Shown: positions 54,679 to 64,000 of the stretch, in pieces
How positions within the stretch are numbered: position 1 is the first letter of the stretch
Layout: every line of letters begins with the position of its first letter
Assembly (NCBI GenBank): GCA_963842525.1
Contig: CAWJGT010000009.1
Coordinates: 352,001-416,000, forward strand
Reading direction: 5' to 3'
DNA: 64,000 nt
Source of the DNA: an uncultured Holophagales bacterium
Lineage (GTDB): Bacteria; Acidobacteriota; Thermoanaerobaculia; Multivoradales; UBA5704
Notes under the pieces: generated by a model
Database searches by the model: none
The model's input: the letters and a program-made list of their open reading frames with translations, nothing else
What the model was told of the DNA's origin: nothing
Position numbers and translations under genes: made by a program

Positions 54679-55201
54679 ATGCCGATGTTGAAACCGCCGG
54701 AAGAAATGGACCTCAATGCCTTCGACAGGCGTTTTCTCAATCTCATCGACGTGCTCGACGAGGCTCCGGGCTGCTCGCAGGCGGACTACGGCGGGCCTTG
54801 GAAGATCGTGCCGCTGAGCCGGGAAGCTCGGGGTCTTCCGCAGTTGGGAAGACCCACGGGCCGGAGACCTGCCGACCGTGGTCACGGGCCTGCGCGAGAC
54901 GGCCCTGCGCTTCACCGCGGTCCTGCCCTGTGCCGGCGTCGAGCACTCCCTGTACCTGGCCGACTCTCCCGAGGCTCACGGCTTCGCGATCCGGGGCGCG
55001 GGTCCGGAGGCCCTCGCCTGGATGCAGCATTTCAATCCGGACCTCTTCGAAGCCTACCGGGTCTCGGAGCATCTGGCGCGCTCGCCCGTCAGCGTGGCGG
55101 CGGTTCTGGAGTCCGCGGGGCCGCTGGCGATCCATCACGTGGGCCGCATCCTGGCGCGCAACATGGGGGCGCAGGTCCGGCGGTTGCATCCGCGGCGCTG
55201 A
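54679..55201 (+). CDS. Hypothetical protein (frameshift near 54830)
   Basis: SD GAGGAGG; NAFDRRFL..EA..ADYGGPW joins HLARSPVSVAAVLESAG in the adjacent frame. Confidence 0.6.
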
Positions 55202-55219
55202 GCCCGGGGGCCTGGGGAG

Positions 55220-55831
55220 ATGACCGCCGGCCGCCTCCGCCTCGTCCGGTCGCTGGTTCGGGCCTTCTTCCCGGAATACCTGCGGCTGGTCGAGCCCGAT
55301 GCCGCGGAGCGCCTGCGCCTGGACCGCCTCGAGTGGCTCCACCTGCCGGGCCCGGCTCTCGCCGCCGAAGCCCTGGAAGCCGGGGGAGGCAAGGCCACCC
55401 TGGTGCTCCGGATCGACCGCGGCGAGCCGTCGCCGGACGATCTCTCGAGCTGGCTGGTGCGCGGCCCCGGCCGGCTGAAGGTTCACTATGGCCGGCCCGT
55501 CCTGCTCCACGTGCTCAGCGTAGAGCAGGGCCGGCCCGGGGTGAACCTGGACACGGCCGTGGCGGCGCGGCTGGCGGGCTTCGAAGCGCTCCGGATCTTC
55601 TATACCCGGTTCGGTCTCGCGGGCGCCCGGGCGGAATACTGGTTGAGCCGGCCCGAGCCCCTGGCCTGGGCCCTCGCCGCCTGGATGAGCCCGTCCCGCC
55701 TCAGCCGCGCCGAGCTCCGCGAAGCCTGCCAACGCCGCCTCGCCGCCGCTTCCCTGCCCGAGGAACGGAGGAAGCTGCTGCTGCGCTTTGCCGCGAGCGG
55801 ACCAGGGGGCCTTCGCGAGTCGCTTACATAG
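55220..55831 (+). CDS. Degenerate Rpn/transposase_31-like protein
   Basis: LVRAFFPEYLRL..P..A..L....EWL and P..LAWALAAWM resemble the Rpn family; the catalytic HxExQ motif is not evident. Confidence 0.5.
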   Translation: MTAGRLRLVRSLVRAFFPEYLRLVEPDAAERLRLDRLEWLHLPGPALAAEALEAGGGKATLVLRIDRGEPSPDDLSSWLVRGPGRLKVHYGRPVLLHVLSVEQGRPGVNLDTAVAARLAGFEALRIFYTRFGLAGARAEYWLSRPEPLAWALAAWMSPSRLSRAELREACQRRLAAASLPEERRKLLLRFAASGPGGLRESLT

Positions 55832-56119
55832 TATCCACCATCCTCCATTCTACTACACGTTCCGCCACGCCAAACTCAGCGACTCTCATCGATCCGTCTG
55901 CATCCGTTGACCAGAACCGTGAAAAAGAAGTAGGGTTCCGTAACGCCGCAACGCGAATGTAGTCGAGCTCGGTAACAAGAGGCGCAGGATTGACAGCGGG
56001 GGTGGGGGAGACATTCTCCTCACTGCCCTGCGAGACTAGAGGCCTTGCAACGCGACGCAGCGCCGCGGGCGCCGGGGCCGTGGGGGCGTCCGGCCTGTCC
56101 CGCGGGCAAGGAGGTCAAG

Positions 56120-56416
56120 ATGTCTCGCCGGATCGTCCGAACGCTCTTTGCCGTAGCCCTCGTGCTGGCCCTCGGCGCAGCCTCTCCCGCTCAGGCTGCG
56201 GTCTTCGGCCCATCTGTCAACGCTCTGGATGTCTGGAGCCGTGCCGTCGCCTGGTTTGTGAGCCTGTGGAACGGCGCGGCGGATGACGACCAGGGCCACA
56301 CGATCGACCCCAATGGCCTGACCGCGGCAACAAGCGACCAGGGCCACAGCATCGACCCCAACGGCCTGACGGCGCCGGATGACGACAAGGGATGGACGAT
56401 CGACCCCGACGGCTAG
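56120..56416 (+). CDS. 98-aa secreted peptide with three D-x-G-x-x-I-D-P-[ND]-G repeats
   Basis: SD AAGGAGG, Sec signal ending AQA, cores DQGHTIDPNG / DQGHSIDPNG / DKGWTIDPDG at a 16-aa period. Confidence 0.85.
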   Translation: MSRRIVRTLFAVALVLALGAASPAQAAVFGPSVNALDVWSRAVAWFVSLWNGAADDDQGHTIDPNGLTAATSDQGHSIDPNGLTAPDDDKGWTIDPDG

Positions 56417-56424
56417 GTGAAGTG

Positions 56425-56447
56425 GGGGGCGGCCCTCCGCCGCCCCC
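56425..56447 (+). terminator. Hairpin after the peptide gene
   Basis: GGGGGCGGC-cctcc-GCCGCCCCC. Confidence 0.55.
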
Positions 56448-56532
56448 TCGCCGTTCCCGTAACTGAGAACTGCCGGCGCGCTTTTGTGAGAGAATGATGC
56501 CGCCGGTTCGGGAATCCGAAAGGAGGTTGCGG

Positions 56533-57882
56533 GTGAGCGAGCATCCCTCAGCGGAGGATCTACGGGGTCTGTTCTTTGGCGGCGTGCCGGAAGAGCGGTT
56601 GCGCGCCGCCGTTCTTCACCTGCTGCGCGGCTGCCCGGAGTGCCGCGCCGCAGCGTTCGAGCATGCCCGGGCCATGGCGGCGCCTTTTCCGCGGGAGGCC
56701 CAGATCCCACCGGAGACGGACAAGGCCTACGACGCCGCGATCCGGCGCTCTATACAGGCAGCCCGCCGGTACCTCGAGCAGGAGGAAAAGCTCCCGGGCC
56801 GGATCGAGGAGGCCCGCGCCCTGCTCGACGCGAAGGACATGGACGGCTTCATCCGCGCACCGCGCTGGCTGTACGGGCTGCCCTTCGTCGAGGCCCTGCT
56901 GGAGCGGAGCTGGGCCGTGCGCCACGACGACCCGCAGAAGATGGTCCTTTATGCCCTTTTCGCCTCCCTCGAAGCCGACCAGCTCGACCGGAAGAAGCTC
57001 GGTGAGCAACGGGTGGAGGACATCCGCTGCCGGGCGTTGGTCGAGCTGGCAAACGCCCACCGGGTCGCGGACGACCTGCGGCAGGCCGAAGTAGCCCTGG
57101 GGGAAGCGGCGGAAGCCTTCCAGAAGGGGAGCAAGGACGATCGGCTCAAGGCGCGGCTCCTCGAGGTGCAGGCCTCGCTGTATGGCGACGAGCGGAGCTT
57201 CGACCTCTGCTTTCAGTCGCTGGACCTCGTGATCGCCCTCCATCGTCGCCTTGGAGACGACCACATGGTGGGGAGGGCGCTGATCAAGAAAGGTCTCTTC
57301 CATGGTCACAATCAAGATTTCGACCGGGCGATTGAGCTCCTGGAGCAAGGGTTTACCCTCATCGATGATAAGCGCGACCCGAAGCTTGCCATGGGGACCG
57401 TCCACAATATCGTCCACTTCTTGGTCAAGCGTGGGAGCTATCGCAAGGCCCGCAGACTGCTTTGGGAGAATCTCTGGCGGTACGAGAAGCACGGTGGGGA
57501 AATCGACCGCATCAAGGTCTGGGGCCTTCGCGGCCTGATCAACACCGGGCTCGGGAATTTCAAGCTGGCCGAACAGGAATTCCGCAAGGGAAAGGAAGGC
57601 CTCGAGGCAGCCGGCCTTCGTTACACTGCAGCCATCGCGGCCCTCGATCTGGCCGATGTCCAGCTCCGTCAGGGTAAGACGAAAGAGGCGCAGGCCCTGG
57701 CCCGCGAGGCGGTGGACGTCTTCCGCTCTTTGAGAATCAGCCGCGAGACCGAGATCGCGGTCCTGTTCCTGGAGGAGACTGTCAAGCAGCGTCTCCTGTC
57801 GAGCGCCGTCCTGCGGGAGATCGCCGAGTTCCTGCGCCGCGCCGAGCAGGACTCCGGAGCCCGGTTCGAGCCGAAGATCTGA
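56533..57882 (+). CDS. TPR-repeat protein with N-terminal anti-sigma-like zinc finger
   Basis: SD AGGAGG; EHP...HLLRGCPEC; then all-helical TPR-like repeats (ELANAHR, GRALIKKG, LGNFKLAE); no TM helix. Confidence 0.8.
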   Translation: MSEHPSAEDLRGLFFGGVPEERLRAAVLHLLRGCPECRAAAFEHARAMAAPFPREAQIPPETDKAYDAAIRRSIQAARRYLEQEEKLPGRIEEARALLDAKDMDGFIRAPRWLYGLPFVEALLERSWAVRHDDPQKMVLYALFASLEADQLDRKKLGEQRVEDIRCRALVELANAHRVADDLRQAEVALGEAAEAFQKGSKDDRLKARLLEVQASLYGDERSFDLCFQSLDLVIALHRRLGDDHMVGRALIKKGLFHGHNQDFDRAIELLEQGFTLIDDKRDPKLAMGTVHNIVHFLVKRGSYRKARRLLWENLWRYEKHGGEIDRIKVWGLRGLINTGLGNFKLAEQEFRKGKEGLEAAGLRYTAAIAALDLADVQLRQGKTKEAQALAREAVDVFRSLRISRETEIAVLFLEETVKQRLLSSAVLREIAEFLRRAEQDSGARFEPKI

Positions 57883-57894
57883 GGCCGCCGCGTC

Positions 57895-58240
57895 CCGCGG
57901 GACTATAGACATCCTCCGCGGCGACGCGCAGTGGTCCCGCGGGACCGGCCAGGCTCACCGTGGGACCATGGATACTCTCCTCGGCGGCGTGCAGTGGTCC
58001 TGCGGGACCGGCAAGGCTCACCGCGGGACCATAGACATCCTCCGCGGCGGCGTGCAGCGGTCCCGCGGGACCGGCAAGGCTCACTGCGGGACCAGGTACA
58101 TTCTCCGCTACGGCGTGCAGTGGTCCCGCGGCACCGGCAGGGCCCACCGCGGGACCATAGACATTCGTCGCGGTGGCGTGCAGTGGTCCCGCGGCACCGG
58201 CAAGGCTCACTGCGGGACCAGGTACGTTCACCGCGGGGCC
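57895..58240. repeat. Tandem array of ~5.5 x 63-bp units (3 x 21 bp) between convergent genes
   Basis: Units start at 57895, 57958, 58021, 58084, 58147 and 58210; each full unit holds a variant of the palindrome GGTCCCGCGGGACC. Confidence 0.92.
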
Positions 58241-58312
58241 ACACGGACATGCAGGAGTGGTGTCCGTCGCCACTCCGGCGGTCTCCTCTGCCGCTCCAGG
58301 TTTCTGGAATCC

Positions 58313-59548
58313 TTACAGCGTCGTCAGTACCTTGGCCAGGCGCTCGACCGCCCAGTCGATCTCTTCCTTTTTGATGGTCAGCGGCGGCGCGATACGGATG
58401 ACGTGGTCGTGGGTCTCCTTGCAGAGGAGCCCTTCCTTCTGCAGCGCCTCGCAGAAGCGACGGGCGCCGCCGGCCTCGCGGTGCAGCTCGATGCCGATCC
58501 ACAGGCCCTTGCCACGGACCTCCTTGATGTGCTGCGAGGAGATCTGCCGCAGGCGGTCCATGAAGTAGGGGCCCAGGGCGGCTGAATTCTCGATCATCTC
58601 CTCGTCGACCAGGACGCGCAGCGCGGCGCGCGCCACGGCCGCGGCCATCGGGTTGCCGCCGTAGGTCGAGCCGTGCTCGCCAGGCTGGAAGACCCCCATC
58701 ACCGGGTCGTCGGCCAGGATGCCGGAGACCGGGTAGAAGCCGCCGGAGAGGGCCTTGCCCACGATCACGACGTCGGGCCGGATCTCCTCGTGCTCGAAGG
58801 CGAACATCTTGCCGGTGCGGCCGAGGCCGGACTGGATCTCGTCGGCGATCAGCAGCGCGTTGTGCCGCTGGGTGATCTCGCGCAGGCGGCGCAGGTAGCC
58901 TTCGGGCGGCACCACGATGCCCGCCTCGCCCTGGATCGGCTCGACCAGCACCGCCGCCACGTTCGGGTGCATGGCCGCCTCGACCGCGTCGGCATCGCCG
59001 TAGGGGAGGACGCGGAAGCCGGGGGTGAAGGGGCCGAAGCCGGCGCGGTAGAGCTCCTCGGTCGAGAAGCTGACGATGCTGATCGTGCGGCCGTGGAAGT
59101 TGTTGCCGAAGGCGAGGATCTCGGCCTGCCCCTCGGGGATGCCCTTGACCTGGTAGCCCCACTTGCGGGCGGTCTTGAGGGCGGTCTCGACCGCTTCGGC
59201 GCCGGTGTTCATCGGCAGGAACTTGTCGAAGCCGGTGAGCTCGCAGATCTCCTTGTAGAAGGGTCCGAGCTGGTCGTTGCGGAAGGCGCGCGAAGTGAGG
59301 GTCACGGAGTAGGCCTGGTCGAGCATCGCCTGCAGGATCTTGCGGTGGCCGTGGCCCTGGTTGACGGCCGAATAGGCGGCCAGGAAATCGAGGTACTTGT
59401 TGCCCTCGACGTCCCAGACCCAGACGCCTTCGGCACGGCTCACCACCACGTCGAGCGGGTGGTAGTTGTGCGCTCCGAAGCGGTCTTCGAGGGCGATGTA
59501 GTCCTCGGTCTTCATCTGCTTCTTCTCTTCAAGCACAAAGGTGCTCAT
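58313..59548 (-). CDS. rocD: Ornithine--oxo-acid transaminase
   Basis: [47 protein letters not shown] and GKALSGG. Confidence 0.95.
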
Positions 59549-59715
59549 ATCTCCTCCAGGTGGTAACCGGTACCAGGGCGAATGGGTGGGGATTTCCCGG
59601 GGCGGACAGCGGCCCGAGCCGCGATCGGCCGCCGTATTAATGCGCCACATTGTGCCACAACGGACGGCGGATTTCAGGCGGGCCGCCGTCCCTGCTATCA
59701 TGCTGGCCGTAAGTC

Positions 59716-61245
59716 ATGCCTGACTATTCCAACGTTCCGCGGGACTCCCGTCGCGTCCCCATCGCGACGAAGGTCCAGTTCAAGTTCGACCGCTTCAGCG
59801 GTTTCCTGAGCGAGTACTCCGCCAACATCTCGCCCACGGGGCTGTTCATCGTCACCAAGACGCCGGAGCCGGCCGGCCGGGTGCTCGAGCTGGAGTTCCA
59901 CCTCGGCGACGGCTTCGAGATCATCAAGGGCAACGGCGAGGTGGTGTGGACCCGCACGGTCGCCGACGGCCCCCACCGGCCGGCGGGCATGGGCCTCCGC
60001 TTCCTGGAGCTGAGCCCGGGGAGCAAGGACCTCATCTACCGCATCGTCGACCAGTACGTGCTGGCGGGCGGCACGCCGTTCGACCTGATCGAGGCCGGGG
60101 GCGGGGTCGCTGCATCCTCTTCGGCGCCCTCCCGCGTCCCGGCCGAGGCGGACGACCTCCTGGCCCCCCTGCCGCCGCTGGACCTGGAGCCGGACCCGTT
60201 CCCGGACCTGGAGCCGGAGCCGCTCAAGGAGTCCTCTTCGAACGTGCTCCCCTGGCGCCGGCCGCCGGATCTCCGGATGGTCGAAGAGCCGGGGCTCGAG
60301 CCGGCCGGCGAGATCTTCGCGCTGGAGGAACCGGGTGCGCTCCCGGTTTTCGAGAGCCGGCCGGACCCGCTCTCGCTGCCCTCGCTGCCCTCGCTGCCAA
60401 CACCGGCCCCCTTCGCCGCCTCCGTCCCTTCGTCTGCGGCCGACGAGCTCTTCGCGTCGTATCTCCCCAAGCCGGCCGAGCCTCCGGAGCCGACGATGTC
60501 GAGGACTCTGTCGAGCCTCGCCGGCAGCGCCTCCGCGCAGGCCGAGCGCCGGCTGGCTCCGTGGGTGCTTGGGCTCGTCCTCCTCTGCGCGCTCGCCGCG
60601 GCCGGGATCCTTTTCCGCGACGATCTGCTCGGCCTCATCGGCCTGGGAGACGATGGAGAGGAGGTCGCGGCGGCTCCAACGACCCGGCCGCAGGAGCTGC
60701 CGCTCCGGCGGACGCAGCCTGCCGTACCGCCGCCTCCTTCCGCATCGGCAGCACCCGGCCTGACGTCCGACGTCGAGCCGGCGAAGCCCGCACCAGCCCT
60801 TGAGACGACCACAGCTCCAGACGCCGCCCCGCGGGAGCCCGCGGCCGAGGAGCCGCTGCCGGAGGTGGTGCAGCGCAAGCCGGCTCCGGAGCCCGCGGCC
60901 GTGCCGGCGGTGAGCGCCGTCGAACGGATCACCTTGGAGCCGACCGCCGGCAGTACCGTCGTGGTGCTCTGGGGCAACGGCGTCTTCCAGCCGCAAAGCT
61001 ACAGCCAGAGCCGCATGGACGGGCCGCCGCGCTCTCTGATCCGTCTCACCGGCATCCGCCGGCCCTTCTCGCCGACCCGCATTCCGGTCGGCACCCCCCA
61101 GGTGCGGCAGGTGCGGACCGGCTATCACGAGAAGGCCGGGGGCAATGAGCTCCACATCGTGCTCGACCTCGGGGGGCCGGGCGTCAAGATCACCCGGATC
61201 GATCAGGACGGCCAACGCCTGCGGATTCATCTGGAGGGACCGTAA
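59716..61245 (+). CDS. PilZ-domain (myxobacterial TIGR02266-like) / TM / Pro-rich / C-terminal AMIN-like protein
   Basis: RDSRR..NISPTGLFI..GEVVW..GMGLRF; TM LAPWVLGLVLLCALAAAGILF; C-terminal PPRSLIRL..VRQVRTG..LHIVLDL. Confidence 0.8.
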   Translation: MPDYSNVPRDSRRVPIATKVQFKFDRFSGFLSEYSANISPTGLFIVTKTPEPAGRVLELEFHLGDGFEIIKGNGEVVWTRTVADGPHRPAGMGLRFLELSPGSKDLIYRIVDQYVLAGGTPFDLIEAGGGVAASSSAPSRVPAEADDLLAPLPPLDLEPDPFPDLEPEPLKESSSNVLPWRRPPDLRMVEEPGLEPAGEIFALEEPGALPVFESRPDPLSLPSLPSLPTPAPFAASVPSSAADELFASYLPKPAEPPEPTMSRTLSSLAGSASAQAERRLAPWVLGLVLLCALAAAGILFRDDLLGLIGLGDDGEEVAAAPTTRPQELPLRRTQPAVPPPPSASAAPGLTSDVEPAKPAPALETTTAPDAAPREPAAEEPLPEVVQRKPAPEPAAVPAVSAVERITLEPTAGSTVVVLWGNGVFQPQSYSQSRMDGPPRSLIRLTGIRRPFSPTRIPVGTPQVRQVRTGYHEKAGGNELHIVLDLGGPGVKITRIDQDGQRLRIHLEGP

Positions 61246-61257
61246 AAGGGTGATAGA

Positions 61258-62373
61258 ATGCCGGTCCCCGACCCGGTGGTAGATGCAGGCAGCCCGATGT
61301 CGAATGTGAAGCGGCTCAAGCGCCAGATACTCCAGGAGCTGGTGCAGGAGAATGTAGATCTCCTCCACGGCCGCCCTGCCCGGCGGGTGCGCCCGCGCCC
61401 CGGCCGCCTGTGGACGGTGCCCCGCGTCCTGGCGTTCTCCCTGTTGCCCATCGCGCTGCTCGGCTCGACCCGGCTGATCTCCTCGCTGGAGTCCCGCCAG
61501 CCACCGAATCCTGTCGTTGCGTCGGTCGCCCCTCCGGCGCCGGCCCCATCGGTCCAATCCGTCCCATCGGTCCGACCGGTCCAGACGGTTCAACCCCCAC
61601 CGCCAGCCACGGGAGCTCGCGTCGAGCCGCCGAAGCCGATCGACGCGGCGGTCTTCCCGCTGGCGGTCCGCCGGGTGGCGCTCGATCCGGGGCACGGCGG
61701 CGAGAGCCTGGGCACCCACACGCCGCTCGGCCTGATGGAGAAGAACCTGACACTCGACGTCGCCCTGCGGCTGCGCAAGCTCCTCGAGGCCGACCATTTC
61801 GAGGTCGTGATGACGCGCCAGGACGACGGGGACGTGCCGCTCTCGCAACGCGGCGCCGCCGCCAACCAGGGGGATGCCGACATCTTCGTCTCGATCCACG
61901 TCAACTGGATCGAGAACCGGCAGGCGCGCGGGGTCGAGACCTACTACCTGGGGCCGACGAACGATCCGTTCCTGACCCGGCTCGCGGCGGCGGAGAACCG
62001 GGAATCCGGCTATTCGATGGCCGACATGCGGCAGCTCCTCGACCGCATCTACGCCAACGTGCGCCAGGACAATTCCCGCAAGCTGGCCGAGGTCGTCCAG
62101 GCGTCGCTGTTCAGCTCGCTGCGCCAGTTCAATCCCAACCTCGACAACCGGGGGGTCAAGGCGGCCCCCTTCATCGTCCTGCTGACCACCGAGATGCCGG
62201 CCATCCTCGCTGAGGTATCCTGCCTGTCGAACGACGAGGAGGCCGAGCTCCTGTCCAAGCCCCACTACCGGCAGTACATCGCCGAGGCGCTCGCGGCGGG
62301 GGTCCGCTCCTATGCGGACGCCGTCGCCGGGGCGCCGCCGGAGGGGCCGCAGAGCCGTAAGAAAGGAACCTGA
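61258..62373 (+). CDS. Membrane-anchored N-acetylmuramoyl-L-alanine amidase (Amidase_3)
   Basis: LDPGHGG, EKNLTL, FVSIHVN and PAILAE zinc/catalytic residues; N-terminal TM and Pro-rich linker. Confidence 0.92.
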   Translation: MPVPDPVVDAGSPMSNVKRLKRQILQELVQENVDLLHGRPARRVRPRPGRLWTVPRVLAFSLLPIALLGSTRLISSLESRQPPNPVVASVAPPAPAPSVQSVPSVRPVQTVQPPPPATGARVEPPKPIDAAVFPLAVRRVALDPGHGGESLGTHTPLGLMEKNLTLDVALRLRKLLEADHFEVVMTRQDDGDVPLSQRGAAANQGDADIFVSIHVNWIENRQARGVETYYLGPTNDPFLTRLAAAENRESGYSMADMRQLLDRIYANVRQDNSRKLAEVVQASLFSSLRQFNPNLDNRGVKAAPFIVLLTTEMPAILAEVSCLSNDEEAELLSKPHYRQYIAEALAAGVRSYADAVAGAPPEGPQSRKKGT

Positions 62374-63413
62374 TGGATACGTATGACAAGCAGCGTGATG
62401 TCCTCCACGTGGGGATCGACCTGGGGACGTCGCGGAGCTCGATCTCCGCGTCCAACGGCCAGCGCCATGTGGTGGAGAGCTACGTCGGCTGGCCGCTCGA
62501 CATGGTGGCCCGCAAGGTTCTGAAGAAGCCGGTCCTGATCGGCCGCGAGGCGCTCGACAACCGGTCCATGCTCGACCTCCACCGGCCGCTGGAGCAGGGG
62601 CTGATCAAGGAGGGGTCGGACAAGGACGAGGCCGCGGTGCGCGAGCTGCTCTGGCACCTCCTGTCGCTCGCCGGGGTCAACCGCGAGAGCCGCAACGGCC
62701 TCAAGGTGCGGGCGGTGGTCGGCGTCCCGGCCGAGGCGCTGCGGGTCAACAAGCAGCAGGTCCGCAAGGCGCTCCAGGGCGTGGTGGACAGCCTGATGAT
62801 CGTCTCCGAGCCGTTCGCCGTGGCCTATGGGCTGGAGTCGCTGCTCCACAGCATGATCATCGACCTGGGGGCGGGCACCACCGACTTCTGCGTCATGAAC
62901 GGCCGCCTGCCCACCGAGGACGACCAGCGGACGCTGCCGCAGGCGGGCGACTGGATCGACGAGCAGCTCTTCCGGCTGGTCCGCGACCGCCATCCGCAGG
63001 CCAGCGTCTCGCAGCACATGGTGCGCACCTGGAAGGAGGAGGGGAGCTTCGTCGGCAACAACAAGATGCCGGTGGTGGTCACCGCGCCGGTCGCCGGCAA
63101 GCCGACGCAGATCGACATCACCCAGGAGATGCGGCAGGCCTGCGAAGGCATCCTGCCGCCGCTGTCCGAGTCGATGCTCGACCTGCTCTCGCGGGTGCAG
63201 CCCGAGTACCAGGAGCGGGTCCGCCAGAACATCATCGTCTCCGGCGGCACCGGGTTGATCCGTGGCCTGGGTCCCCGCCTCGAGCAGGATCTGCAGCAGG
63301 TGGGCGGCGGCAAGGTGCGGGTGGTCAAGGACCCGGTTTTCGTCGGCTCCGACGGCGGCCTTTCCATCGCCCTCGACGCACCCGAGGGAGACTGGGAGAG
63401 GCTGGGCGCCTGA
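62373..63413 (+). CDS. MamK-like bacterial actin
   Basis: VGIDLGTS, VVGVPA, IVSEPFAVAYGL, IIDLGAGTTD, FVG, QPEYQ..V.QNI.V.GG and VKDPVF are collinear with MamK as recalled; TGATG overlap with the amidase. Confidence 0.85.
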   Translation: MDTYDKQRDVLHVGIDLGTSRSSISASNGQRHVVESYVGWPLDMVARKVLKKPVLIGREALDNRSMLDLHRPLEQGLIKEGSDKDEAAVRELLWHLLSLAGVNRESRNGLKVRAVVGVPAEALRVNKQQVRKALQGVVDSLMIVSEPFAVAYGLESLLHSMIIDLGAGTTDFCVMNGRLPTEDDQRTLPQAGDWIDEQLFRLVRDRHPQASVSQHMVRTWKEEGSFVGNNKMPVVVTAPVAGKPTQIDITQEMRQACEGILPPLSESMLDLLSRVQPEYQERVRQNIIVSGGTGLIRGLGPRLEQDLQQVGGGKVRVVKDPVFVGSDGGLSIALDAPEGDWERLGA

Positions 63414-63443
63414 GCCCTGACGCCTCAGACGGGAGACCACCTC

Positions 63444-64000
63444 ATGTTCGGATCCATGGTGCTGGAAGTCGCGGTCGGCGTCATCTTCGTGTACCTGTTG
63501 CTGAGCCTGATGGTCACCGCGATCACGGAGTTGATCTCGGGATGGCTCAAGTGGCGGGCCACCGATCTCCGGAAGGGGATCCGCAGCCTCCTCGAATCCG
63601 GGGACTCCGAAAAATGGGTGAACGCGCTGTACGAACACTCGTTCATCCAGGGGCTCTCTCCGACGGAGGAGAAGGAGGCGAAGGGGAAAGGCCCGTCCTA
63701 CATCCCGTCGCGCACCTTCACCCTCGCCCTTCTGGACGTAGTTCGTGACACCAATTCGGCGGGCGAGCTCCTCGCCCGGGTCCTGCGCCAGGCGCTCGAC
63801 ACGGCTCCGGATTCGGCATCACTGGCCGATCTGAAGAAGGGGATCAAGGACGAGCTCCAGAAGATCCCGGATGACAAGGTGGGTGCGGGCCTCAAGGGAC
63901 AGGCCGCGGCGCTGGTCGACCGAATCCCAGCCAGTGTGTCTCTGGCCGATGCGAAGAAGGATCTCGGCGCTTATCTGCAACAGCTCTCCGGCCGATCGCT
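63444..64000 (+). CDS. Conserved membrane protein; 3' end beyond window
   Basis: MFGSMVLEVAVGVIFVYLLLSL..ITE.I...LKWRA..L..GI and PSYIPSRTF; frame open to the window end. Confidence 0.75.
   Translation, partial: MFGSMVLEVAVGVIFVYLLLSLMVTAITELISGWLKWRATDLRKGIRSLLESGDSEKWVNALYEHSFIQGLSPTEEKEAKGKGPSYIPSRTFTLALLDVVRDTNSAGELLARVLRQALDTAPDSASLADLKKGIKDELQKIPDDKVGAGLKGQAAALVDRIPASVSLADAKKDLGAYLQQLSGRS

Follow-up and report, generated by a model that had tools for sequence, protein, structure and literature searches.

Where and when bacteria cut their cell wall is a central open problem. The known control of peptidoglycan amidases is exerted in the periplasm, by LytM activators and by AMIN or SPOR targeting, or by way of FtsEX; in Escherichia coli, AMIN domains, SPOR domains and LytM factors all take part in controlling the septal amidases. 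MamK, the actin-like protein of magnetotactic bacteria, has its adaptors in MamJ, MamY and McaA/B. Here, we describe a locus of an uncultured Holophagales bacterium from soil (Acidobacteriota, class Thermoanaerobaculia) in which the gene of a MamK-family actin directly follows that of a cell wall amidase. The window, by which we mean the whole 64,000-nucleotide stretch of DNA that was analysed (positions 352,001 to 416,000 of contig CAWJGT010000009.1, GenBank assembly GCA_963842525.1), belongs to a genome of 9.95 Mb in 34 contigs. Three genes on its plus strand are of concern. Gene 1 (59716–61245) encodes a protein of 509 residues with a PilZ domain, a transmembrane segment and an AMIN domain; gene 2 (61258–62373) encodes an N-acetylmuramoyl-L-alanine amidase of the AmiA/B/C type, 371 residues long and predicted to be bitopic with its N-terminus in the cytoplasm; and gene 3 (62373–63413) encodes an actin-like ATPase of 346 residues. 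We read genes 2 and 3 as a two-gene module joining cytoskeleton to wall, in which the amidase, docked by its tail, would be placed by the actin filament and of which gene 1 would be a lineage-specific third member; we put the probability of this reading at roughly 55%.

Like MamK, to which it is homologous from end to end, the actin of the window would form a filament that has no membrane anchor and acts through a partner encoded by a neighbouring gene. Unlike MamK, it stands in no magnetosome context, it has for a partner a peptidoglycan amidase whose tail lies in the cytoplasm, and it belongs to a separate actin clade. With ParM–ParR of the plasmid R1 ParMRC system the locus has in common the adjacency of adaptor and actin genes and the prediction of a short partner helix in the actin cleft, which we take to be the mode in which ParR binds ParM; it differs in having neither DNA cargo nor centromere, the partner being an envelope enzyme. 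As in the MreB–RodZ elongasome, a cytoplasmic actin would be tied through a bitopic membrane protein to wall enzymes in the periplasm; MreB, however, attaches to the membrane directly and steers enzymes of wall synthesis, whereas here the bitopic partner is the hydrolase. The septal amidase apparatus of E. coli (AmiC, AmiA and AmiB with EnvC, NlpD and FtsEX, and the SPOR proteins FtsN, DamX and DedD) shares with the locus an AmiA/B/C-type catalytic domain with its insert, and the use of AMIN and SPOR modules. The window's amidase departs from it in having no AMIN domain and no export signal, and in bearing an uncleaved transmembrane anchor with a cytoplasmic tail; AMIN is found here on a separate PilZ protein, and the locus contains no LytM or FtsEX gene.

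BeeR, a MamK relative from Verrucomicrobiota that forms three-stranded tubes and whose function is unknown, likewise occurs in non-magnetotactic bacteria (PMC11929497). The actin of the window is much closer to MamK than to BeeR, and neither 'amidase' nor 'operon' appears in the available part of the BeeR text (PMC11929497). A search of the literature, judged on titles and abstract openings, turned up no account in which an actin of the MamK type goes together with an amidase or with a PilZ protein. An actin with its gene tied to that of an amidase would bring in a new principle, that of a hydrolase positioned by a cytoplasmic filament and, if true, would give the large MamK-like family its first function outside magnetotactic bacteria.

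The amidase–actin pair is the conserved unit

Genes 2 and 3 overlap in a TGATG (...CCTGATGG), the stop codon TGA and the start codon ATG having one base in common, and genes 1 and 2 are separated by a gap of 12 bp (...CCGTAA-aagggtgataga-ATG). The fraction of guanine plus cytosine at third codon positions is 0.89, 0.89 and 0.95 in genes 1, 2 and 3, respectively, compared with 0.69 overall, values of the kind that real genes would show. An earlier account drawn from the DNA letters alone, referred to below as the sequence-only reading, had described the same three co-oriented genes with the same two junctions. Close homologues carry the names of Thermoanaerobaculia and Acidobacteriota metagenome-assembled genomes (MAGs).

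The actin was found in 25 of the 301 genomes sampled from the phylum. Apart from the genome of the window itself, the carriers are all 11 others of its family and order, 8 of the 15 others of its class, and 5 elsewhere. An amidase gene lies immediately 5′ of the actin gene in every one of 20 Acidobacteriota loci, drawn from 20 of the 24 other carrier genomes (genus g7, which has five loci, is represented by one), and in 78 of 80 further loci that came from a search with a single genome for each species and whose actins are 65–87% identical. Pooling of the two sets, less two duplicates, gives 97 of 99 loci, and the two misses have only 65 and 7 bases of upstream sequence. The distance from amidase stop to actin start is at most 30 nucleotides in 63 of the 69 pairs, and in 25 the two genes overlap.

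How far the linkage extends is seen in a set of 80 metagenome loci, which was seeded with more distant relatives (44–51%) and scored with a hidden Markov model (HMM) of the actin clade. Among the actins scoring 431–620 bits, 26 of 27 are preceded by the amidase, the 27th beginning at base 3 of its contig; among those scoring 221–403 bits, which belong to sister MamK-like clades, none of 53 is, and 40 of these 53 have at least 1 kb of upstream sequence. A FastTree phylogeny of 129 rows, in which 23 close loci were hand-picked and three partial metagenome actins were left out, places 49 of 49 amidase-linked actins in one clade (Shimodaira–Hasegawa-like support 99) and none of 50 unlinked actins inside it; the clade also holds one long-branch representative of unrecorded context and the locus that has no upstream DNA. 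Clustering at 50% reduces the linked clade to two full-length representatives, one of which has a member from a Nitrospira MAG (NCBI name), and some linked loci carry Binatia or Rokubacteria MAG labels, here used as given. The linkage thus runs through one whole actin clade, mostly of uncultured Acidobacteriota, with MAG labels from these other groups.

We conclude that the conserved unit is the amidase–actin pair. That actin and amidase belong together had been proposed from the sequence, and the counts above, the single clade, the conserved tail and a complex prediction that exceeds its controls (see below) all bear this out. The same account had called for a survey of synteny among relatives; the pair is syntenic throughout, but the PilZ–AMIN gene is not conserved across carriers. 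No third conserved gene of the kind that might encode a cargo was seen among the 99 loci.

The sister clade that lacks the amidase has a recurring upstream open reading frame (ORF) of its own, co-oriented with the actin and coiled-coil-like in sequence (L175:3070-3849, L156:3152-3943, L105:2395-3240, L111:2535-3416); in L156 and L175, it ends 76–152 bp 5′ of the actin. This ORF may encode an adaptor of the sister-clade actin. In a search of the 53 sister loci (3096 ORFs) with an HMM of the amidase tail, run at maximum sensitivity, no hit rose above noise, the highest score being 5.6 bits; this query gives no support for a tail motif there. Stretches resembling 'DRxKI..AV.E' can be picked out by eye in some upstream ORFs of the sister loci; we do not count them as evidence.

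The actin is a MamK homologue

The best NCBIfam model for gene 3 is NF040964, the MamK family, which matches over profile positions 1–331 of 335 at 374.7 bits, below the family cut-off of 400. The solved MamK structures 5ljw, 5jyg and 5ljv match at E values of 2e-79, residues 8–345 aligning with 9–342 of 5ljw (E 2.1e-79). In this alignment E146 lies opposite MamK E143 and D164 opposite D161, the two MamK residues presumably being those of the ATPase site. The nucleotide-binding motif residues D16, G18, T19, E146, D164, G166, T169 and D171 are invariant in 71 sequences. BeeR comes second, with 8r2n at E 3.5e-39 and NF053558 at 196.9 of 530 bits, and MreB is far behind. The actin has no hydrophobic segment.

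The identification as a MamK-like actin made from the sequence is thus upheld by the MamK structures and by the family profile. As to the suggestion that the system is independent of mreBCD, the genome contains a separate true MreB, scoring 488.6 bits, to which the actin of the window is additional. No magnetosome gene is found among the neighbours within about 10 kb, the range in which such genes were looked for, no genome-wide search having been made. That gene 3 is a genuine magnetosome MamK or the remnant of a magnetosome island can be given practically no weight: its best solved relatives and best family model are indeed MamK, but it falls short of the family cut-off, its neighbours include no magnetosome gene, and the amidase-linked actins form a clade of their own.

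Many MamK-like actins (P0134–P0164 and P0195) form the C-terminal part of proteins of 520–1232 residues. We considered whether the long fusions (700–1232 residues) join an actin to an amidase, and they do not; of the 19 proteins scanned, 17 were of fusion length, and 16 of these have an N-terminal part that belongs to no Pfam family. The remaining one, P0195 (768 residues), joins FtsZ (Tubulin and FtsZ_C domains) to the actin.

The amidase is membrane-anchored and lacks an AMIN domain

Pfam Amidase_3 (PF01520) matches residues 140–350 of gene 2 (61675–62307) at 163.7 bits against a cut-off of 27. H146, E161, H214 and E319, which we take to be the zinc ligands and the catalytic glutamate, are invariant across 69 orthologues. 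As one continuous stretch, the catalytic domain aligns with AmiB (3ne8), AmiA (8c2o) and AmiC (4bin), and the alignment runs through the regulatory insert: the sequence LTRLAAAENRE at residues 239–249 falls in the regulatory-helix region of AmiA, AmiB and AmiC, opposite 'akslaesenkv' and 'akylserenra'. Within this insert, E246 and N247 are likewise invariant in the 69 orthologues. In the AlphaFold2 (AF2) model the insert forms helices at 237–248 and 254–263, and the model superimposes on AmiA 8c2o with a target-normalised template-modelling score (TMt) of 0.82 and a root-mean-square deviation (rmsd) of 2.4. Scores against the individual equivalog models are below their cut-offs, at 100.3 of 400 bits for AmiA, 96.5 of 700 for AmiC and 87.1 of 532 for AmiB.

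A Pfam scan finds no AMIN domain in the protein, the N-terminus being occupied instead by a cytoplasmic tail and a transmembrane segment. The only hydrophobic segment covers residues 57–75 (61426–61482), where AF2 places a helix at 53–76; a basic stretch precedes it, with six Lys or Arg residues before and one after. The predicted order is therefore cytoplasmic tail, basic stretch, transmembrane segment, a linker, some 60 residues long, and finally the catalytic domain. From profile, alignments and model, gene 2 is an AMIN-less, membrane-anchored amidase of the AmiA/B/C type, in agreement with the earlier description of a membrane-anchored Amidase_3 with intact zinc ligands.

A conserved amidase tail is predicted to dock into the actin

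The tail is about 50 residues long, and residues 13–36 (61294–61365) form an amphipathic helix in the AF2 model, which we consider the putative actin-docking element. All 79 amidases with complete N-termini carry the motif ..R(I/L)KRxLLRxAVxEN(L/V)DxIxG.., followed by basic residues and the transmembrane segment; the periplasmic linker of the same 79 sequences, in contrast, cannot be aligned. Among the 69 orthologues K21 is nearly invariant and N32 invariant, and a distant subclade retains ..ILRGVYE(E/D)NL.. in its tail.

The complex of one actin protomer with amidase residues 1–55 was predicted from custom-built alignments. The interaction prediction score from aligned errors (ipSAE) was 0.84, 0.87 and 0.86 (median 0.86), compared with 0.48, 0.00 and 0.00 for the controls; of 80 solved complexes 58 reach the mark set for this score, and of 110 mismatched pairs 2 do. 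The runs have 73% or more of their contacts in common, and the predicted local distance difference test value (pLDDT) of the partner is at least 62. On the side of the tail, the predicted contacts involve residues 16–41, which is the conserved helix, and on the side of the actin a cleft made up of residues 124–131, 141–158, 177–179 and 332–345. The sequence-only reading had suggested modelling the actin with the amidase N-terminus; the outcome, with a median well clear of the best control, supports docking of the tail helix in the actin cleft without showing it.

The PilZ–AMIN protein is a lineage-specific accessory of the pair

Gene 1 matches Pfam PilZ (PF07238) at 44.6 bits (cut-off 22.5) over residues 9–112 (59740–60051) and TIGR02266 at 71.6 bits (cut-off 68.7). 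The motifs that define binding of cyclic dimeric GMP (c-di-GMP) by PilZ domains are RxxxR and (D/N)xSxxG; gene 1 has the first as RDSRR at residues 9–13 and the second as NISPTG at 37–42, and homologues in which the gene lies upstream of the pair keep both. From family and motifs, we infer that the PilZ domain of gene 1 binds c-di-GMP. It is followed by a Pro/Glu-rich linker, the one transmembrane segment (residues 282–300, 60559–60615; 19 residues with a Kyte–Doolittle mean of 2.36), a Pro/Ala-rich linker on the predicted periplasmic side and the C-terminal AMIN domain (residues 402–507, 60919–61236). Sequence between the domains is barely conserved in the homologue alignment.

The assignment of the AMIN domain comes from a family HMM, Pfam and the predicted fold. 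Pfam PF11741 scores 17.0 bits on the whole protein, which is below the cut-off of 20.5, and 21.7 bits when the domain is scored by itself; among 26 members of the gene 1 family, 11 have an AMIN match at E ≤ 0.1. The AF2 model of the domain has a pLDDT of 95.3, and its top two Foldseek matches in the PDB are both AMIN domains: PilQ (3jc8_Qa; query-normalised template-modelling score, TMq, 0.72, rmsd 2.8) and AmiC (4bin; TMq 0.70, rmsd 2.7), with E values of only about 2e-3. The PilZ profiles, the hydrophobic segment and the predicted fold together bear out the PilZ domain, transmembrane helix and AMIN-like domain first recognised from the sequence.

A PilZ–AMIN gene adjoins the pair in 26 of 101 loci, with both domains in one frame in 23 of the 26. 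When only loci with 2 kb or more of sequence on each side are counted (65 in all), 20 have the gene beside the pair, and its presence falls off with declining identity of the actin to that of the window: 11 of 11 at 80% or above, 5 of 14 at 70–80% and 4 of 38 at 60–70%. It lies upstream in the relatives of the window and downstream of the actin in L019, L021, L095 and L096, and in genome G119 it is unlinked, on another contig. That copy (L184, G119:C111:58155-61502) has an extremely acidic linker and a PilZ domain with neither RxxxR nor (D/N)xSxxG. Three of the four genomes of family f8 have AMIN matches of the PilQ-like kind only, and the fourth has none. In seven loci, a SPOR-domain protein encoded downstream of the actin replaces PilZ–AMIN. 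The adjoining proteins of both types, AMIN in 26 loci and SPOR in 7, are all bitopic and carry wall-binding domains without a catalytic domain.

The PilZ–AMIN protein is, then, a lineage-specific accessory of the pair. The three-gene operon that had been put forward is not the conserved unit: the three genes stand together in 11 of 11 loci at 80% identity and above but in a minority of loci further out. As for the second-messenger control proposed with it, the PilZ domain with both motifs is there, but because the gene is rare, moved, unlinked or replaced by SPOR elsewhere, such control would be at most a lineage-specific add-on.

A model for the pair and its alternatives

The actin would polymerise in the cytoplasm, as its end-to-end homology to MamK and its intact nucleotide-binding motifs suggest. 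The amidase tail helix, about residues 13–36, would dock into the actin cleft formed by residues 124–158, 177–179 and 332–345, and the filament would set where the amidase sits, clusters or travels, and hence where peptide stems leave the glycan strands. In the lineage of the window, the gene 1 protein would add two functions: attachment to peptidoglycan where the amidase is at work, through its periplasmic AMIN domain, and responsiveness to c-di-GMP, through its cytoplasmic PilZ domain. Other lineages that have a SPOR-domain protein would use that in its stead. AMIN and SPOR are septal-wall-binding domains in model organisms and, because of this, the role would by analogy most likely be the separation of daughter cells or a related local splitting of the wall.

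Several observations weigh against this model. The complex score is a measure of model confidence obtained from custom alignments, and, since helices are well known to bind in actin clefts, the pass may in part reflect likeness to solved actin–peptide complexes. Clade-specific conservation at the predicted actin interface, by a criterion fixed beforehand, was not significantly raised (3 of 23 positions, against 17 of 315 elsewhere; Fisher p = 0.15), nor was mean conservation (0.77 at the interface and 0.72 in the rest, p = 0.25); a stricter criterion picked afterwards gave 7 of 23 against 16 of 315 and p = 3e-4, all of these p-values overstating the significance because the sequences are related. 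If the contacted cleft is also the site of longitudinal contacts in MamK-type filaments, the tail could bind only monomers or filament ends. The periplasmic linker of the amidase, about 60 residues, is disordered in the AF2 model (pLDDT 43–55), so that the position of the catalytic domain would be only loosely set by the tail. Besides gene 2, the host genome contains two Amidase_3 genes, as well as 14 Peptidase_M23 matches, and the gene 2 amidase therefore need not be the main separation enzyme. Most carriers have no PilZ–AMIN gene beside the pair (it is there in 20 of the 65 loci counted above), and the downstream-type PilZ copies (L019, L021, L095) have RxxR in place of RxxxR. Lastly, a search of sequencing runs returned no RNA run containing the locus, and DNA runs at a word share of at most 0.12 only, from which nothing follows on expression.

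The conserved tail and its predicted binding would also fit if the amidase were the anchor and not the cargo. The filament would in that event position something else, say a compartment, part of the nucleoid or a machine in the envelope, and the amidase, together with the AMIN or SPOR proteins, would fasten the filament ends to peptidoglycan. An actin that has no hydrophobic segment and third proteins that bind the wall without a catalytic domain are as expected for such a fastening. The invariance of H146, E161, H214 and E319 in the active site and of E246 and N247 in the insert, however, argues for a working, regulated enzyme, and the 99 loci offer no conserved gene for whatever the filament might carry; we consider the anchor unlikely.

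It is improbable, too, that the two genes are merely expressed together, translationally coupled since actin and amidase are needed simultaneously, for instance at division, and that the proteins make no contact. Tight coupling and synteny would be expected of related proteins that do not interact, and the negative outcome of the conservation test with its criterion set in advance is in keeping with this. But an enzyme of the periplasm that carries a conserved cytoplasmic helix of 25 residues needs a partner in the cytoplasm, the predicted complex scores above its controls, and the linkage is strictly confined to one actin clade.

A bolder version of the filament-placed amidase, to which we give little credence, would make the pair a ParMRC-like cytomotive machine for an enzyme. 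The tail would bind a cleft exposed at filament ends only, and ATP-driven insertional growth would push or drag single amidases along the inner membrane, gated in this lineage by c-di-GMP through PilZ–AMIN; the cutter would then travel, say, outwards from mid-cell or in the direction of the septum. If true, a peptidoglycan hydrolase would for the first time be seen to have a cytoskeletal motor of its own.

It is distinctly unlikely that the actin acts as a switch, its ATP cycle or polymer state regulating the activity of the amidase from the other side of the membrane, whether through clustering or through release of an autoinhibitory helix, in analogy to FtsEX–EnvC–AmiA/B and with no positioning. 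The amidase does have the regulatory insert of AmiA/B/C, and its partner is an ATPase with intact motifs; a single transmembrane segment and a low-confidence linker of some 60 residues, however, make a poor conduit for a conformational signal, and the 14 Peptidase_M23 matches could supply conventional activators.

Neighbouring genes

The genes within about 10 kb are those of an aminotransferase, a tetratricopeptide repeat (TPR) protein, PilZ–AMIN, the amidase, a membrane protein and TamB/TamA. The ornithine aminotransferase gene lies 5′ of the module on the opposite strand. A fourth co-oriented gene begins 30 bp 3′ of the actin with no terminator-like site in between (63444–64000, plus strand), leaves the window (L003:6445-8061) and encodes a membrane protein of 538 residues; beyond it are convergent TamB and TamA genes. 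The sequence-only reading had left this fourth gene out. A sequence scan of L003:2400-8400 gave no promoter-like site and four terminator-like sites, against 2.4 expected, none of them between the four genes. An Rfam search of window positions 55000–64000 returned no match.

The gene of the 538-residue protein is probably co-transcribed with the module at this locus. As a candidate fourth member of the module the protein was rejected, for none of 100 related loci holds a homologue. It has three hydrophobic segments and belongs to no Pfam family. Its 904 homologues are mostly of 380–450 residues and mostly from Acidobacteriota, with one Gammaproteobacteria label; they span only the first 83% of the protein, and the last 90 or so residues may represent a read-through or frameshift tail.

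Just outside the window on the minus strand, L003:11941-14766 encodes a 941-residue protein in which a BrkB/YihY-type membrane domain (177.9 bits) is joined to the POTRA and Omp85 domains of TamA, an unusual fusion, beside TamB. The TPR protein (462 residues, window 56494–57882) has paralogues of 25–30% identity within a few kilobases of the module in several close relatives (L027, L028, L029, L037, L038 and L083) and at L003:15275-16534 and L003:16787-17680; in L037 and L083, the paralogue lies directly 5′ of the PilZ–AMIN gene. Between the end of the TPR gene at 57882 and the aminotransferase gene there is a 63-bp tandem repeat (window 57895–58220; 5.2 copies, 84% matches) with open frames on both strands. 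A small ORF at window 56045–56416 has a signal-like N-terminus and contains a 48-bp repeat (56275–56413, 2.9 copies) that encodes units of the form DDxGHxIDPNGLTA.

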